From Spizellomyces punctatus DAOM BR117 (lineage: Eukaryota), in NCBI GenBank assembly GCA_000182565.2, contig KQ257463.1: a stretch of DNA of 64,000 bases; one strand, 5' to 3'. The notes under the pieces are model-generated. The model ran no database searches. It saw only the letters and a list, made by a program, of their open reading frames with translations, and had not been told where the DNA came from. The first letter of the stretch is position 1. Each line of letters opens with the position of its first letter. Positions 41,341-57,268 of the stretch are shown here, piece after piece. Made by a program: the position numbers and the translations under genes.

Positions 41341-44174
41341 ATGGCCTCTGAGGAAAGCACGCACGGGGCAGACCGGTCCAAAACATCTTCACCCTCATCT
41401 CTGCCGCCACTCACCGAGCAACAACAGAGCGACAGGCATGTTCGTCTTCTGGAACCCGATGGCTATGCAAGTGACGGCGATCAAAACTGGAGTCAAAGCC
41501 AGTCCGAAAATGTCCGTGGGTGGCCACAGCGCCCACACACTGCCGGAGGTCAACGCCATGTCGACAAGCATCCGCATGCCTCAAAGAGTAGCAGATACTT
41601 TAGAAGGGTTGTAAAGAGTGGTGATGAGGAGATTATGAGCCCAAAAGAACAGAGGAGGTAAAGCTATCAAGGATCAAATGCCTGTTATTGAAAAAGCCAA
41701 CTGATCGGTTATTGTAGACTGTGGTCTCACCAATCCCTTCGTGCTCGAGAACGTACTTACGATGTCAATCTTGTGACGACTCACATGCCACTCTATGAAC
41801 CATTGTTGGACGAGTATCTCGCAGACTACTTCAACAGCCCAAAGATTCGAAAGCACTTGGTCAAGCTCGGCCTGGTGGGACCTGTGATCCATGTGCTATT
41901 GTTGTCTGACACTTTTATTCATCATTTTGATTATATGTGTGCGCCCAACGCATTCATTCAGGTTGACGATGAAGGGAACATCATTGACTCAAGGCAGTTC
42001 AAGTGCAATCAGATCCGTCTCGACAGAATGGAGCATGAATCACAGATTATGAAAAAGATGGAGGAGAGGGAAATGGACCGAGCTGTTGAGGTAAAGTCTC
42101 CAGTCCCTTGACGACCAAATCGTTTCAAAAAACTCAGTCAATGTACATTTTGGGCAGACTGCTATTCGCCAACAAAATGAAGAAGACAAGACTCCCCGAT
42201 CACAGAAACTCAGGAAGACTGTGGTAAGTGTGGTTTATCACCGTCGTCGAAACCATGCACCACGGACCACTGATCAGGCATCAACACACGCAGGAGGCAC
42301 CACATTCAAGTCTCCCTTATCCAGATTTTCTGGCGCATTATCCTTCAACCATGACAAGAACAGCTTTGCTCTACTCGGAAAAACCTGCTCCACTTACCAC
42401 AGCTGAGCAAATGGTTGTCGCAAAACTTAAGCAACAAACGCCTCGTAAATTGAAAGCGTTGGGCATCAGTCCGGCTCAATTACATGATCGCGAGATTCAT
42501 TCACAAGAGGTAGCCAGGAAAGAACGAGAGGCGATATGGAAAAGTGGTCCTACTGCGTCTCGATACCGTAAGGACCACGGTGGCACTGAGCCACCACCTC
42601 TAAGACAACAAAAGAAACAGACAATGGCACCTGTCCTGAACGGTGACAGTTGGAACCGAAACGCAGGCCAGAGAGACGAAGATGAGGAAAGCCTTTCGCA
42701 TCTCTTTGATGTCGCCAAGCGGGAATACAAGGAGGGGAAGTTGGAAGAGGCAGAAAGTCACATTCGCAAGATCTTGCACAAAGTTGAAGAAAAGGAAGGC
42801 AAGCAAGCATGGCAAGGCCAGGAGCGAACAGAGGATAATCTTCCCAAGGGATTATTCGCGGACGACAGGGGAAGCTCTACAGAGAGCCCGAATCTCTCAC
42901 AGGTAATTCTTGACAAAGATGTCCTGCGAACACGTTCAGGTCGATCCACACCCTCCACGCCTCGACACCGTGCTCTGCGCCCCAAATCTGCACGACCAAC
43001 CCGGCAGTCTCATTTTCCGGTCGCGACAGATTTCAGCGACTTTGATGCTGGCAGTGAAGGTGGATATGAATCCGACGGAGATGTATTCTTATCGGATGAG
43101 CTGGACCCACATGCTCTTGCTGGAACTGGTAGTAGGAATGAGAATTCCTTGTCAATGACGGAAGATGTCGAAGGCATGCTTCAGGAGGTTGTGGAACAGA
43201 GTACGGTCCCTCCTGACCCGGTGACTGATGAGAGGAATTCAGACTTGCAGCAATATACGACCAAACATGCCGACGAGCATTCAGGTAGTATGGACCTGGC
43301 GAGAAACGTGGCCTTGCCCCTCAGTAGACCCATGAGTGCCAAAGATAGTAAGAATGCGCTGAATGGAGCAACGAAATCGTCACCCTACGCACAGCCTCAA
43401 AGTCGAACGGCATCTCGTGCGGCTAGCGTATCGAGTTTAACAAATGGACAAAATACCGGCAAGATGTCCAGAGCGGCAAGTGCGACTCTAAATAATGCGC
43501 CGGATGGTGTTGCGTCGCCTCTGGTGCAGCGAGGTAGCCTTCCTGCATCGCGAACTAGCTTTTCATCACAGACCGCACCACAAATACGCAGTAGGGAATT
43601 CAGCACCGGCATTCTGAAAGCGATCAACAACAAGAATGGCGATGAAAATGAGCAACCGTTCGGACGAACAAACAGTGCGAATTTTGCTGCTGGGATACCC
43701 CTTCCTGAAAGTCGACCAATGAGTATCGACAACTTGAAGCAAACCAATGGGATTCGTAGTCGAGAGCAAAGTACTGGTACACTTCAAAAGGACAATCCCC
43801 ATCATAGCAGCCAAAATATCAAAGCCATCGACCAAGCCCCTCCATCCCTTCCTCGCGATGAAGTAACCTCAGCGAAGCCAATGAGCCGCACCGCGAGCGC
43901 TATATCACTCCACCGACAAATATTCAATCGCTCTGCAAGCGGGAATACACTGGACGTTATGGTCCAAGCAAAGAGCCAGCAGTCCCTTTCCGGGGCCCAG
44001 GTACCCAGTGCGTATGGGATCAGCCAAGATGGAAGGCCTTTGAGTCGAACTGGTAGCGCGCAGAGTGTGAAGGCGATTTCAAGTCGACCGCAGAGTGCAA
44101 AGAACGTGCAAAGAACATCGCAGGCCAATAGTCGAGCCCAGAGTCTACAAGAGCTGGCTATAAACAGTTCTTAG
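41341..44174 (+). CDS. ERICH3-like protein (conserved N-terminal motif plus long disordered tail); multi-exon
   Basis: YEPLLDEYLADYFNSPKIRKHLVKLGL|VDDEGNII resembles the ERICH3 N-terminal motif as recalled; followed by a 648-aa Ser/Arg-rich exon. Confidence 0.55.
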
Positions 44175-50448: not shown

Positions 50449-50809
50449 CCACCTGCCAACGTTGTAGAGGTATGTACAAAAGACAATGAGAGCTTCTCAG
50501 ACCAAAAAAAAAGAGATTATTCTTGGGAAGATAACAAAAAGCCTCAATGGTGAGGGATGATCCTGCTAGTGCTGTCCCAATGTACCGCACAGTGTCCACA
50601 GACAAGTTTATTCAAAAAATAATGCTGGCATTTATACGGATCAATATGCTTGATCCTTGATTTGAAATTTCAAAAATACTGGCCGCCATGGCGGGGCAGT
50701 AAGATATAAATAGCTTTGCTCACAAGTAAAAACAAAGGGTTAGGTTGGGTTGCGGTCACATGACACTAAGTTCATTGAGATACAGTACATTAAAGAGTCC
50801 GAAAGCATA

Positions 50810-51048
50810 GTGTGGAGGTGATTGAAAATGGCACTAGAACCCCGCATAATCAGCACCCCCTCTATTGCTCAAAACGGTGTGGCATGTATTGTAATGTTTT
50901 TTTTTTTTTAAACTGCGGTGAGGCGCATGCCAAAGGTCTATGAAAGGGGGGCCTTTTCCTAGTAGTAGTTAGTTAGCTTTTCCGAACCGGTTGTCGCCGG
51001 TTTATTCCCTGGTGTAGTAGCTAGTGCCAGTTTCTGTCACCTCTACAC
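50810..51048 (+). mobile_element. Non-autonomous TIR element (Fanzor 'ghost' / Spu-1-like), short 239-bp copy
   Basis: Ends TAGTGTGGAGGTGATTGAAAATGGCACTAG and reverse complement TAGTGTAGAGGTGACAGAAACTGGCACTAG match at 26/30. TA occurs on both sides (50808-9, 51049-50), the left flank is CATA, and the element is homologous to the inverted copy at 56307-57019. Confidence 0.88.
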
Positions 51049-51065
51049 TATTAGGATTCAATCGT
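50976..51065 (+). ncRNA. Putative Fanzor omegaRNA: 75-nt scaffold plus ~15-nt guide (TTAGGATTCAATCGT)
   Basis: Scaffold GCTTTTCCGAACCGGTTGTCGCCGGTTTATTCCCTGGTGTAGTAGCTAGTGCCAGTTTCTGTCACCTCTACACTA with hairpins AACCGG/CCGGTT and GGTGTAG/CTACACT; it closely resembles the SpuFz1 omegaRNA as recalled. Confidence 0.75.
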
Positions 51066-51555
51066 ATCAATATTAGGACCTCATGCACCTCAACCCATCA
51101 CCATCAATTATGGTACTCTACTGATGCCCGCAAGTCACAGAAACGAAAAGAACCAGATATAATTTAAAACTTTAGAAACATGCAAATAAAAAGAACATTG
51201 CACAAATGCAACGAGAAGGCGTGTTTCTCGCAGCTACGTGCTTATCCGTCAGTAAGTAAAGGATTACATCAGCAAGTCTCGCTGGTCTCCTTGCTGTTTC
51301 CCTCCCTCCTTCTCGGTCTCCCCCCCTCTCTCTCTCTCGGCCATAACGCGCCCAAGTCCCCGCTTCCAGAACAGGGGCTGACTCTCTACCCGATCACAGC
51401 GGGATACTATATCCGCCAAGAAAAGAAAAAAAACCAATACAACCTTCCCTAAATACAAAGCCATCAATCGCTACATGCAAGAAAAAGGCCACTGGGTCAT
51501 GAGGTTGAAAATGCCGTCATTCGAATCTGATTCCATTCCTTTGTTTTTCTTTCGT

Positions 51556-53039
51556 TCACAAGCTTCCCATGTTCGATGGGTCTTCCAAATCATTCGAACT
51601 TTGAGCCAATTCACCAAAGTCTACAGGCCCGTCGTCCGGTAATTCGCCATCTATATACGAAGTCTCGAGGCTACTCATCAAATATGGATTGTTTGATCCT
51701 GTTTCTCCTGGAGTTGATCCAGAGTTTCGTCTCATGTCGGTTCGGATGTGTAGTTTGATGCCTTGCCGAGCCAGACACTTGGCAAGTTGGGAGGACTCTA
51801 CAACAAAGAACATGTCAAGAACGCTGGACGCGTGAAAACGACCGCCAATCTATCCAACTTTACCAGTCATTCCAGGAAATGTCTTTGGGGGGAATACTGC
51901 AATGATGTCGGACATTGCCGATGCCATGGCTTGTGAAGCATCCTTGGTGATGTCGTACAAAAAGAATTTCAACCGATAATGGCCGCCCGTTCTTATGCTC
52001 AAGTCGGCAAACTAATGGAGCGATAACAGAATATTCGAACCTTGGTCTCGGAAAGGTGGCGTGCTATTCTTATAAAAGAACTTACCGTGAAGAAAAGCGC
52101 CTTTTGTCCGTCAACATCTGTGAGAATGTGGCAAGGGCTCACCAGGGAGCCTACAAGAACGGAAACGTAGCTAGAAGGTGGTGGCGTCAAGGTTGACTCT
52201 CCTGCGAAGAGCGATTCAGTTCGTCGTGCGGCAGCACTGCCCGGATTCAAGACGACTCCTCGCTCTTCTGTTCCATCTGCCGACCAAAGCGACGCATGAC
52301 AAACGAGCGACGTACTTTCCTTGTAGCTATGGACAAAACAGAGACAAATTCACCGTCAGATCATCTGCACGGAGGTATGGAAAAACACATTTTTGGTATT
52401 ATGTGTCTTTACTACATGTCCACTTACTCTAAAACGACTCGATCCCCCTCCCTTCGGATGAGTTGTAGGATTGGTGCTGGATCAACAGGGCGGTAATCCT
52501 TTGTTCCAAAGCCACACATTCGAGCCCGATTGGGCTGTTGGCGAATGATGAGTTCGTATAATCTGTATTCAGAAGAAAGAAAAAAAAAAGAAAAACCAAC
52601 ACCCACGCACACACACACAAAAGCGTCGAAAAATGGTCAGCGAAAAGATATATGGATACGACTGTCGTTTGTTGCCGCAAGCAAAAGACTCCTCTACAAA
52701 AGGCATGTGTGGCGGCTACGCCAACACACATGCGCAAAGGACATGCGAGTTGCGGGGAGACTTGCCATAATGCGCAAGCGTATTTCACTTAAACCCTTCA
52801 CTCCCAAGCGTGCAAACCGCGACAGCGTGAAAGACACCAGTGAATAACTTTTGCCCATCCGCCCCGAAAGAACCCAACTCTACTACGGTATTGTTAAGCC
52901 ATGCCAAAAACAACAACTTTATTACGTACATTATGGGGGAAGGAGGAGGAGGATTGGACGGAGGAGACAAGCTGGCAGACGTAGCCGTGGCACCGGCCGA
53001 GTCAGTATTTTCTGTGGGACCCACTGGAGACGCGTGCAT
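51556..53039 (-). CDS. Velvet-domain transcription regulator; multi-exon
   Basis: YELIIRQQPNRARMCGFGTKDYRPVDPAPILQL, LVGSLVS, LSIRTGGHYRLKF and VFPPKTFPGMT-ESSQLAKCLARQGIKLHIR are hallmark velvet motifs. Confidence 0.9.
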
Positions 53040-54583
53040 TGGGCGGCCAACAGAAGCGACAACAGGGTCGGTCCGAGGGTGTGATAGAGCTTCTCAACTT
53101 TGTTGAAACTGTTTACTTGTCTTTTGTAAACTGGATCGGCGCGATACGGCGGCGGGTTATGACGAAAGGATTAAAAGAATGAGCGTATGTGTGTTTTGTG
53201 CGTTGGTGTGTGAGTCGCCAGGTCCCCCCACGGACGGATTGGTGCTTTAATCGTCCCGGGGAGGCGAAGCGGGTCCTAGCAAGAAAAAGTACACGGAGTA
53301 CGACGGAGGGGGCCGTGCGGTTGGCAGCGAACGAGTACCGGGTAGAGGGTAATAATGTCCTGATATGCGTGTGTTGGGCAACTGAACGGACGACCTCCAA
53401 GATTTAAAAATACGGGAGGTTCTATCACGACGATGATTCGGAACAAGAGCGTTACCAAAGGGCAACAGGACCGCCATATAGACACGAAAAGGAACGCTAA
53501 AGGGCTAAATAAAAAAAAGGATCTGTCAACAAGGGAGGGGGGGTGGAATATAAAGGAACTCGCTAGCAAGGCAAGCCGCAATGGGAGGGAAATGGGAAAA
53601 GAAACGAGTTGCGGGAATCCGCGGAAATGCAACTTGTCTACGGAGAGCGAGAGAGGGCGGGTTTGTTGTTCTGTGTGGGAATTTTGTGTTTTTCTTTTCC
53701 TTGTTATTTTTGTGGTGTCTATGGCTATTTCAAATATGTGTCTATTATCGAATATGAGTGCATATCGATTCATCTTTGCAACCCATACGACATATTCAGG
53801 TGGACATTTGAACATGGCCGCACAAACAAGTCGCATTATCGCAAGTTCCGATCTCCTTTCAAACAATGAGAAAAAAACAAATAAAAAAACGACGTATTAT
53901 TCCCCCCCCTTTGAGTTCTCTCACTCTCTCTCTCTCATATTTGTAAATGTAAGCGTATTTTCCCGATCTGATTTTCCCCATCTATTTGAACGTTGACATT
54001 TTGCCGTTCTCCTGGTCATTGGCATACCCATGATTGGGAGCGCATGGGACTTGTGGGTCTAGAACCCGTATTTGCTATGGACCCCATGCACCCAGTATCC
54101 AGTGTCTTGGAACCACCCACCACGGTCACTCCACGGACGGAATTTCAAGACATTTTATCCTTGTCTCTTTTGTTCAGCCCATTTTCTCTCTCGTTGGTGC
54201 TGAGCGGATGGGGTGTTTGTGGGAAAAAGCAAAAAAAATGGAGATGAACAAGGCATAGGAGGCACAGCCATTAAATGTGTTACTATGGATATTTGGCACA
54301 ATTCATGTCTCTCAAACACAGCAAGAAAACCACGCAGTTAAAGAACGAGGCTTACCACTTGTAGATTTTTGCCGTGACGCCGTGGGCCCCCCCTTTCCAA
54401 CTGGCGGTTTGCTTTGTTCACGCAAAACAACGCTAAACGCTACCGCGGTCAAACGTCTTTCACTTGCATTCATTAACATCCCCCTGCTATTGAAATTCCC
54501 TGACGAAAAAAGGTTAAGGTTCCCCCCCTCCTTCAACCTGAAACTCCCAGCCACCGTGAAGAATCCTTTGTCAACACAAAACG

Positions 54584-56100
54584 ATGAAAAGGGATATTCT
54601 GATTGTCGGAGCTGGTCCTTCAGGACTGGCAGCATTGAAGGCACTCAAGCAACACAATCAAACAAAAAGCTGGAAGCTTGTCGTCGCTGAACAACGATAT
54701 GGAATCGGCGGTGTTTGGTATTGAAAATTGAACTATGATCAGCAGTTGCACATGAACAACGGATGGGCCGAATGTTGATTGTTTTAACAAAAATTGCAAC
54801 TTCTAGGCTGCCGTCGTCTTTGACGCCCATCCCACCGGACCTGCCCTCGTCCCCGATCTACGACTCGCTCACCACAAATTTGCCTCATCCGGTGATGGCG
54901 TTCTACTCCCATCCGTTCCCCCGAGCCACTCCGCTTTTTCCCGGTCACCCCGTCGTATTGAAATACCTGCAGGCATTTGCGGAACGGTTTGCTCTCTTGT
55001 CGCACATTCGCTTTGGGCACAAGGTCGTGGGTGCAGAATGGGATCCTCGTGTTCAGAAATGGCGGACAAGATTTTGTACGCGGAAAAGGAACACGCCAGA
55101 AATGGCTGACGCGTCTGAACACGAACGCGCAGCCAACGCGTCTGAGGAAATGTACGACGCGATTCTAGTGTGTTCTGGACACTACCACTATCCCAAAACG
55201 CCGGATTGGCCAGGCGTCAACGAGTGGACTCTGCATGGGCGAACCTTGATGCATGCTTGCTACTATCGGCGACCGCAACCTTTTCGCAACAAGGTGGTGT
55301 TGATCGTAGGTGCAGGCCCTTCAGGGAGAGATCTGAGCAATGAGATTGCGTCAGTTGCACGACAAGTGTATCACTCTGTTCCTTGGGCATGGCATCCTGC
55401 ACGATCTGCAACACCCATCGTCCATACGACATCGTCAGGCATTGCTCTCAAGCCTCCCATCCGCAGATTCCACTCGAATGCTATAGAATTTGAAGATGGT
55501 ACACAACTGACGGACGTTGATATTGTCATTGCTGCCACCGGTTATTTCTATCGTTACCCTTTTTTACCTTCCAATATCCTCTACGATCCATCCCAATCTC
55601 CAACCGCGCCTTCAAGTGCCTCCCTCTTTTGCGATGGTTCTCATGTTGAACCTCTCTACCAGCACATGTTTCCGATAACACCGACGTCACCTGCAGCTCC
55701 TAATCTCATCTTCTTTGGACTCCCGTCCAAAGTTGTTCCTTTCCCATTGTTTGAGATCCAAGCGCTTGTTGCAACTAATCTCCTGTTAGGTAAGAAGCAA
55801 CTTCCACCCTTTGATGCCTTTCAGGATATCCCACATTCGCATAACCTGCCGAACGAGAAACAATTTGCATATTGTAATAGCCTTGCTGAATGGGGTGGCG
55901 TAAGAGATTGGCAGGTCAAGGACTGGGTAGTGGAAATGTACGCTAAAAAAGATATTCTGCGGAAAACTTGGCAGGAGGTTGAAAGACGAGGTGAGCAGCA
56001 CCTCCAAGAGTGGATTGGAGGCGTGGAAGGAGAGAATGAGTGGGTCAATGTTATGAGACGATTAATCGCATTGGGAGAAGAACAGGCCAGTCAGGGGTGA
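54584..56100 (+). CDS. Flavin-containing monooxygenase (FMO1-like); 2 exons
   Basis: Exon 1 MKRDILIVGAGPSGLAA...GIGGVW (54584-54717), intron to 54806, then YDSLTTNLP, CSGHYHYP, MHACYYR, IVGAGPSGRD and IAATGY. Confidence 0.92.
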
Positions 56101-56289
56101 TTAGGAGTATATTCAATACGTCTAAAGCCTGAATGGCTACCGTCCTCGGATGCAGCACCCTTCGACGGTCATTTATAGAATCTTGCATATTCTGATATCT
56201 CCATAGTACAGGAAGAGATTGGGCCTCACACATCATTTACCCTGGGCAAAAACTGAAATTCTAACTGATTGTCTATATTCCACCCGCAG

Positions 56290-56379
56290 TAATAGTTCTG
56301 TGATTAGTGTAGAGGTGACAGAAACTGGCACTAGCTACTACACCAGGGAATAAACCGGCGACAACCGGTTCGGAAAAGC
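56290..56379 (-). ncRNA. Putative Fanzor omegaRNA: 75-nt scaffold plus ~15-nt guide (ATCACAGAACTATTA)
   Basis: Scaffold 56305-56379 is identical (75/75) to 50976-51050; the downstream flank is different. Confidence 0.75.
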
Positions 56380-57019
56380 TAACTAAGCTACTACTAGGCA
56401 ATTATACACGCAATACGTAACGGTTGGTTCTAACCGGATAATTGCCCACCACCACACGCGGTCCCTACTAGGCCTTGATCCAGAACTCTTGATGGCATTG
56501 AAGCCAGACTCTTGCATCCAGGAGCGAATCGACTGGGCAGCGTCACAAGCCAGAGGATGTTCAGTGACAAGACTTGGAGACTAAAACGGCATGTCAGCGA
56601 GAGAACAATATGAAAAGAGATGATGCCATTGGTACTTACCAACCAAGCTCAACAAGTGTAGCAGCATAATAGTAGGCTTTGTTATCGGATCCAATTGGTT
56701 GCCGCTGGTTCTGATCACGATTGCTGTCGGGCGGTCGAGGTCCTCGGCACCACCACATCGGCGTTCTCATGACTGATGAGAGTTGGGCAGATGCTTTGAG
56801 TCGAGGGATAAAGAAACAAGAGGAAAGAGACAGAAGGTCCCCCTTTTATAGACCTTTGGCATGCGCCTCACCGCAGTTTAAAAAAAAAAAAAAAAAAAAA
56901 ACATTACATGCATGCCACACCGTTTTGAGCGATAGAGGGGGTGCTGATTATGCGATATGATTAACCGGAGTGAGCCGGATAATAATGAATCTTAGTGCCA
57001 TTTTCAATCACCTCCAAAC
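56307..57019 (-). mobile_element. Non-autonomous TIR element (Fanzor 'ghost' / Spu-1-like), long 713-bp copy
   Basis: Reverse complement of the 50810-51048 element with ~440 bp extra internal sequence (~56399-56835). TA at 56305-6 and 57020-1; CATA at its left end on the minus strand. Confidence 0.88.
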
Positions 57020-57268
57020 TATGGATAAAGTTAAGATTAAGGCACAGTAACACCGCTAACCAACGGCACACTGCAACTACGGGGCAGTGACTGCGTGCAT
57101 TTAAGTGAATCAATGCATTCTAACCTCCATATTGGGTTGAGTGCAGGAGTGGAAAGTCTGCGCCGCTTACGTATCCTGATCGTCAGATTGTGACTGCGCC
57201 GTCAGTGGGAGAACCATCAGTGAACAACGAGTTCAACCCATCTGCGAGCCCAGTCTTCCCACCCAGAT

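Follow-up and report, generated by a model that had tools for sequence, protein, structure and literature searches.

Two predicted ghost Spu-1 elements with an identical omegaRNA-type scaffold in Spizellomyces punctatus DAOM BR117

Ghost Spu-1 loci and the two elements of the window

Bacterial IS200/IS605 elements with TnpB encode an omegaRNA at the right end, and this RNA has a homing role. TA-flanked MITEs are short non-coding derivatives of cut-and-paste DNA transposons that result from internal deletion and carry terminal inverted repeats (TIRs). The closest described relatives of the elements considered here come from Spizellomyces punctatus DAOM BR117, for which Saito et al. (2023, PMC10432273) reported 42 loci with an Fz gene and 134 'ghost Spu-1' loci that have inverted repeats (IRs) and lack the Fz open reading frame (ORF). 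Several characteristic features of the ghost loci are given in that paper: (i) IRs of 30 nt, the 5' one preceded by a conserved CA, and the TAM 5'-CATA, (ii) a 75-nt scaffold that spans the right IR and is followed by a variable guide of 14-15 nt, (iii) a stem 2 in which a 3-nt bulge replaces the 8-nt hairpin loop, and (iv) an internal stretch of about 550 nt that is shared and conserved. At seven positions the published IRs differ, and according to a figure legend the IRs and the omegaRNA regions show strong conservation from one ghost locus to another (PMC10432273). Four 75-nt ghost scaffolds supported editing with SpuFz1 in human cells in the same work. A dozen ghost scaffolds, with clade representatives tested, were later reported to support SpuFz1 editing, and one ghost scaffold was engineered as gst28.m2 (Nat Commun 2026, PMC13434818).

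The window, that is, the whole stretch of 64,000 nt that was analysed, contains two protein-less TIR elements in inverted orientation whose right ends face each other. Copy A occupies 50810-51050 on the plus strand (241 nt) and copy B 57019-56305 on the minus strand (715 nt); BLAST found neither further copies nor solo ends elsewhere in the window. The following features were assigned.

50806..50809, plus strand: CATA at the left border of copy A, made up of the conserved CA and TA and equal to the published SpuFz1 TAM
50810..50839, plus strand: left IR of copy A, 30 nt, of which 24 equal the reverse complement of the right IR
50939..50946, plus strand: TATA-like box of copy A (TATGAAAG), a putative promoter element
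50976..51050, plus strand: predicted 75-nt ghost-type omegaRNA scaffold of copy A, from its fold and its identity to copy B
51019..51048, plus strand: right IR of copy A, equal to scaffold positions 44-73, from the IR comparison
51051..51065, plus strand: predicted 15-nt guide of copy A, consisting of flanking DNA; placed by the published layout, and with CATA it spells the empty site
57020..57023, minus strand: CATA at the left border of copy B, read from the sequence
56990..57019, minus strand: left IR of copy B, with T for G at IR position 3 in the alignment
56843..56850, minus strand: TATA box of copy B (TATAAAAG), a putative promoter element
56640..56770, minus strand: exon 1 of copy B, from the ATG, 43 codons plus 1 base, after the spliced transcript
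56581..56639, minus strand: intron of copy B, 59 nt, with GTAAGT, CTGAC and a terminal TAG, placed by contig joints
56430..56580, minus strand: exon 2 of copy B, with a reading frame that is not conserved between copies
56305..56379, minus strand: predicted 75-nt ghost-type omegaRNA scaffold of copy B, identical to that of copy A
56307..56336, minus strand: right IR of copy B, from the IR comparison
56290..56304, minus strand: predicted 15-nt guide of copy B, consisting of flanking DNA, placed by the published layout

Both borders of each element carry TA, and CATA directly precedes each 30-nt left IR. The IRs also find each other by BLAST, with self-matches at 26-27 of 30-31 positions. About 655 nt lie between the IRs of copy B, and the ORFs within this copy are all of 81 aa or shorter. 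Global alignment showed that copy A lacks 433 nt present in copy B; copy A is thus an internal-deletion derivative of a B-like element. The two left IRs form the outer ends of a 6.2-kb segment (50810-57019) with an FMO-like gene inside (54739-56100). By layout alone this segment resembles a composite transposon, and it gives no sign of mobility.

Comparison with the description of the ghost loci, rather than with their sequences, revealed the same set of components in the two elements. Both lack an Fz ORF and have 30-nt IRs and a CA/CATA left border, as do the published loci (PMC10432273, PMC13434818), and both end in a 75-nt right-end scaffold with a 3-nt bulge, followed by a flank-derived guide (PMC10432273). 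The span 50976-51065 of copy A thus divides into 75 and 15 nt, which is the published layout of scaffold plus guide. The several hundred nucleotides inside copy B may further correspond to the conserved internal region described for the ghost loci (PMC10432273). No defining feature differs from those given in PMC10432273. The sizes do differ, copy B having about 715 nt against roughly 610 nt implied by PMC10432273, and copy A 241 nt owing to its missing 433 nt of internal region. We assign both loci, with a probability of about 0.9, to the non-autonomous ghost Spu-1 transposons of the S. punctatus Fanzor1 family, that is, to nuclease-less elements with a 75-nt ghost-type scaffold at the right end.

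For the peptide encoded by exon 1 of copy B (43 aa), the protein collection contained only two matches, the N-termini of SPPG_08830 (95% identity) and SPPG_09412 (93%) of S. punctatus DAOM BR117; at the level of sequence comparison these matches are an independent link to this organism. PDB searches with two translated frames of copy B returned no match to the solved SpuFz1. The interior of the ghost element was also considered as a remnant of an Fz gene; this candidate was rejected, as SpuFz1 was not matched in PDB and the one match obtained was weak and unrelated (E = 0.02). A TnpB-type Pfam domain was absent from 48 of the 52 window ORFs of at least 150 aa, the other four overlapping larger ORFs that were scanned. 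A 648-aa ORF at 42228-44174 on the plus strand, close to SpuFz1 in length, was rejected as a Fanzor candidate, having no Pfam or PDB match and no similarity. An intact Fanzor gene is present in the same genome according to PMC10432273.

Two wider classes share part of this organization. Like the TnpB omegaRNAs of IS200/IS605 elements, the predicted RNA is a guide RNA at the right end, its guide is read from the flank, a TAM stands at the left border, and the target would be the empty site. Unlike them, the elements reside in a eukaryotic host, have TIR ends and TA in place of hairpin ends, and would depend on a nuclease supplied in trans; a pseudoknot is absent as well (figure legend, PMC10432273, which makes the comparison with ISDra2). 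Like MITEs, the elements are short, non-coding, internally deleted, bounded by TIRs and flanked by TA, whereas the guide-RNA scaffold and, in copy B, a spliced transcription unit set them apart from MITEs.

Fold of the scaffold and its identity between the two copies

The original prediction had proposed that the right end of the element encodes a two-stem RNA that is perfectly conserved while the rest of the element drifts, and the proposed fold was reproduced. Stem 1 is formed by positions 9-16 with 21-28, and stem 2, which includes an inner hairpin, extends from position 35 to position 75. A linker of 6 nt (positions 29-34) separates the stems, and stem 2 has a 3-nt bulge. The minimum free energy of the 75 nt is -23.4 kcal/mol (z = -3.84), and none of 200 shuffled sequences folded as well. 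The global structure of exon 2 together with the scaffold was not notable (z = -1.07). No Rfam family matches the scaffold region; at E <= 1 the search returned a single match, to a viral stem-loop (52843-52908) that is unrelated and did not reach its threshold.

The scaffold was compared with the canonical SpuFz1 omegaRNA over the 16 residues named in the text of PMC10432273. Nine of these match in register (C7, U16, A29, C32, C34, U35, G37, A72, and A75), and at the protein-contacting residues the two are similar, with A29, C32, and C34 of the linker kept. The general plan is also that of the canonical RNA (cryo-EM structure 8GKH, PMC10432273): a 75-nt scaffold with stem-loop 1, a linker at positions 29-34, a stem 2 ending at A75, and a guide that begins at position 76. 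In stem 2, a 3-nt bulge takes the place of the 8-nt hairpin loop (PMC10432273). In addition, the loop UGUCG of stem-loop 1 is present and displaced by one base, and the pair C40:G70 is replaced by U40:A70 (PMC10432273). The last of these bears out, for the one pair named in PMC10432273, the compensatory changes that had been proposed for the long stem. By its fold and by these residues, the 75-nt segment appears to be a ghost-type scaffold of a Fanzor omegaRNA, and a functional reading of it is supported.

Alignment of the two copies confirmed the pairwise differences that had been listed for them. The segment 50969-51050 (plus strand) is 100% complementary to 56305-56386 (minus strand) over 82 nt, so that the identity of the 75-nt scaffold holds and extends 7 nt beyond it; the BLAST match as a whole covers 97 columns at 97.9%. 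Upstream of this tract the copies diverge as follows: (i) the left IR has G in one copy and T in the other at 50812 in the global alignment, (ii) the subterminal indel, proposed at about 30 bp, amounts to 32 nt in gap runs of 1, 18, and 13, (iii) the poly-T run has 13 nt in copy A (50897-50909) and 22 nt in copy B (56880-56901), (iv) the TATA boxes differ by one base, at 50942 of copy A, and (v) internal substitutions occur at 50841, 50866, 50887, 50951, and 50957. The T-run of variable length is situated just upstream of the conserved promoter block.

Substitutions in the global alignment number 0 in the 75 scaffold columns and 7 in the 166 columns outside. The contrast between two copies alone is marginal, with a one-sided Fisher p of 0.07 and a probability of 0.04 for zero substitutions in 75 columns at the outside rate, and these values leave some room for a chance escape of the 75 nt from mutation. 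The contrast is strengthened by the gap runs, since all 8 of them also fall outside the scaffold, and the strong conservation that PMC10432273 describes for the IRs and omegaRNA regions of ghost loci further argues against such an escape, which we regard as hardly credible.

Variation of the scaffold across the family and the source of its conservation

To describe variation beyond the pair, Logan contigs of four sequencing runs (X1, X8, X10, and X16) were aligned to copy B at a likeness of at least 80%, and variants with a share of at least 5% were considered. The pieces placed on copy B numbered 170 for X1, 371 for X8, 41 for X10, and 21 for X16, with matches at 80-100%. The kinds of the runs are guesses of the tool, and cover differs between regions of copy B. 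The tally comprises 40 of the 54 variable sites. Among the sites listed, the scaffold contains at least 4 in 75 nt (5.3%) and the rest of copy B at least 36 in 640 nt (5.6%). The scaffold had been expected to show a lower substitution density than the rest of the element, and this expectation failed in the four runs, among the sites listed; equal density inside and outside counts against the original prediction. Perfect conservation of the scaffold is likewise a property of the pair formed by copies A and B, and does not extend to the family, which varies at four or more scaffold positions. This agrees with a 2026 survey of 126 unique ghost scaffolds of 74-76 nt that form several clades, the more divergent ones being less active (PMC13434818); an identical scaffold at two loci is thus not the rule in the family.

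The distribution of the variants within the scaffold is uneven. All four listed variants fall in RNA positions 2-23, and among the sites listed none with a share of at least 5% falls in positions 24-75. Three of the four sit in stem 1 and preserve pairing. Two of them, C>T at 56366 and G>A at 56357 in plus-strand terms, correspond to G14>A and C23>U in the RNA, which are partners in stem 1; they occur at equal depth, with one contig each in X10 and X16, and record 17 of X16 has exactly two other letters. The remaining one, A11>G, would turn the pair with U26 into G-U. The computed folds have energies of -23.4 kcal/mol for the wild type, -17.2 for G14A, with which the helix opens, -21.2 for C23U, and -21.9 for the double variant. 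The covariation called for by the RNA reading is therefore present as one pair within the family (G14:C23 to A14:U23) and one pair relative to the canonical scaffold (U40:A70).

Further variants cluster at the 5' edge of the scaffold in copy B coordinates: 4 nt are missing at 56379, the base at 56380 is substituted, and 1 nt is missing at 56387, the last of these being shared by copy A. An exact 26-nt anchor from exon 2 had 0 matches among metagenome contigs. The sole metagenome match to a degenerate scaffold pattern (L001, 1501-1546) was dismissed as a chance match, being GC-rich and lacking stem 1. Root, plant, and soil runs had shares below 0.2, which have no bearing on habitat. Of the 16 papers whose full text contains one 11-mer of the scaffold, the 10 listed were all unrelated.

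Shared recent descent of the two copies, or gene conversion between them, could account for most of the identity in place of selection, and the scaffold may still function in that case. The two copies are inverted and only 5.25 kb apart, and their identity runs 7 nt past the scaffold, with near-identity over 97 columns. The family-wide variation of the scaffold points the same way, as does the count of 126 unique scaffolds after removal of duplicates (PMC13434818), by which an identical pair may be an exception. Against recent copying as a whole stand the left 166 aligned bases, with 7 differences and several indels. A conversion tract limited to the right end is possible, yet nothing requires it, and the absence, among the sites listed, of any variant of at least 5% share in RNA positions 24-75 suggests a constraint that reaches beyond the pair. 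We therefore consider descent or conversion unlikely as the main cause of the identity.

A constraint on the right end could act on DNA or on RNA. The right IR (positions 44-73) accounts for 30 of the 75 nt and largely coincides with the distal part of stem 2 (positions 40-70). The published structure places the RuvC, NUC, and WED domains in contact with stem-loop 1, with the linker, and with the base of stem 2, whereas no protein contact is made by distal stem 2 (C40-G70), the trimming of which leaves activity intact (PMC10432273). Because of this overlap with a segment that SpuFz1 neither contacts nor needs, the DNA-level inverted repeat is the better explanation for the invariance of positions 44-73. 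The RNA explanation fits positions 1-43, which comprise stem-loop 1, the linker, and the base of stem 2.

The same facts, namely the share of the IR in the 75 nt and the dispensable, uncontacted distal stem 2 (PMC10432273), could be carried further, to a right end kept solely as a DNA transposition signal, with an IR and subterminal transposase-binding sites and with no functional RNA. No transposase is known for Spu-1 (PMC10432273), which leaves space for this reading. However, a symmetric signal does not predict what is observed next to the IRs: the 45 nt internal to the right IR are identical between the copies, whereas their left counterpart has the 32-nt indel and substitutions. The change from G14:C23 to A14:U23 lies in stem 1, outside the IR, and points to an RNA helix, and ghost scaffolds work with SpuFz1 (PMC10432273, PMC13434818). 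A signal at the DNA level alone thus appears very unlikely.

The identity of the right ends would instead reflect two overlapping constraints, one on positions 1-43 as omegaRNA and the other on positions 44-73 as inverted repeat. The claim of purifying selection on a functional RNA is accordingly upheld in part: the ghost architecture and the structure-preserving variants favor it, whereas the variant density of the scaffold, among the sites listed, is about that outside and the invariant positions 44-73 belong to the IR.

Possible transcript, proposed working and meaning of the elements

Several observations indicate that copy B, as a full-length ghost element, is possibly transcribed and spliced. 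Its components follow the order TATA box, leader with a canonical 59-nt intron, exon 2, and omegaRNA at the 3' end. One X16 contig connects 56580 with 56640, and one X10 contig connects 56565 with 56640 through 16 intervening letters; X8 pieces have loose ends that read across the intron. In X1 the intron is covered, and no such joint is listed. The gene models of SPPG_08830 and SPPG_09412 are spliced at the same junction. Contigs of the runs with a spliced-RNA-like profile, a kind that is guessed, cover the scaffold; contigs cannot show RNA ends. Contig cover in X10 and X16 begins downstream of the TATA box of copy B. The middle of the intron and the left end of the element have no cover in X8, X10, and X16, as would be consistent with RNA.

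The leader does not appear to be maintained as a gene for a protein. A conserved small protein in ghost elements was considered as the main reading and set aside, since only two database proteins match and the frames of exon 2 are discordant: SPPG_08830, SPPG_09412, and copy B each read this exon in a different frame. Of these two proteins, P0003 is 92% identical over residues 47-95 in a second frame and has residues 96-105 in a third; the C-terminus of P0004 is in yet another frame. Pfam gave nothing significant for either exon peptide. Across the four runs, nevertheless, no part of the element is more uniform than exon 2, with at least 1 variable site in 151 nt (0.7%), among the sites listed. 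Exon 2 is thus conserved as nucleotides and is probably not protein-coding.

We tentatively propose that full-length ghost Spu-1 elements are small spliced transcription units, presumably of RNA polymerase II, rather than bare guide cassettes, and that the leader acts as RNA, either as a 5' extension or as part of an omegaRNA precursor; the opposite is somewhat easier to believe. A conserved leader of this kind would have a parallel in the canonical scaffold, which is boosted by a 5' extension of 275 nt. Copy A, in turn, may represent either a naturally minimal form of the omegaRNA cassette or a copy with a dead promoter. No mention of an intron, of splicing, or of a TATA box in ghost loci was found in the main texts searched: the main text of PMC10432273 contains neither 'intron' nor 'TATA', and 'splic' occurs there only in a reference. 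A literature search with the tags SPPG_08830 and SPPG_09412 returned no paper.

The predicted components suggest the following course of events. Transcription would start inside the element, in copy B through the TATA-driven, spliced leader and in copy A from the same TATA-like box, which the loss of 433 nt has brought to a distance of 37 nt from the scaffold. Beyond the right IR the transcript would continue for about 15 nt into the flank, and these nucleotides would serve as the guide. SpuFz1, supplied in trans by another, full-length locus of the genome, would bind the scaffold, and the complex should recognize 5'-CATA followed by the guide sequence. Removal of the element and one TA at either locus leaves CA, TA, and the right flank in a row, which spells CATA plus the guide target; the complex would thus cut the element-free site. 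A cut in the empty allele would favor repair from the occupied allele. Guide expression at copies A and B, supply of the protein in trans, and homing are all inferred here, and homing was raised by Saito et al. (PMC10432273) only as a possibility. No other CATA-adjacent target of the guides was found in the window, where the best of 387 CATA sites has 6 mismatches in 15 positions.

The ghost omegaRNA loci of S. punctatus, the conservation of their scaffold, and its use in engineering are already known. The two elements have little weight as a discovery, given that 134 ghost loci and their conserved IR and omegaRNA regions were described in 2023 (PMC10432273). The suggestion that the scaffold is a natural variant useful for engineering is sound in kind, as such engineering has been carried out in print on ghost scaffolds, and for the same reason it is not new (PMC13434818); the printed data on SpuFz1 binding and editing concern other ghost copies. 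What the present comparison offers is a correction, in that the perfect conservation seen in a pair is not family-wide and part of the invariant stretch is IR. A possibly fresh thread is the transcription and splicing of the full-length ghost element. A leader that is conserved without a reading frame would bear on how the native host makes ghost omegaRNAs.
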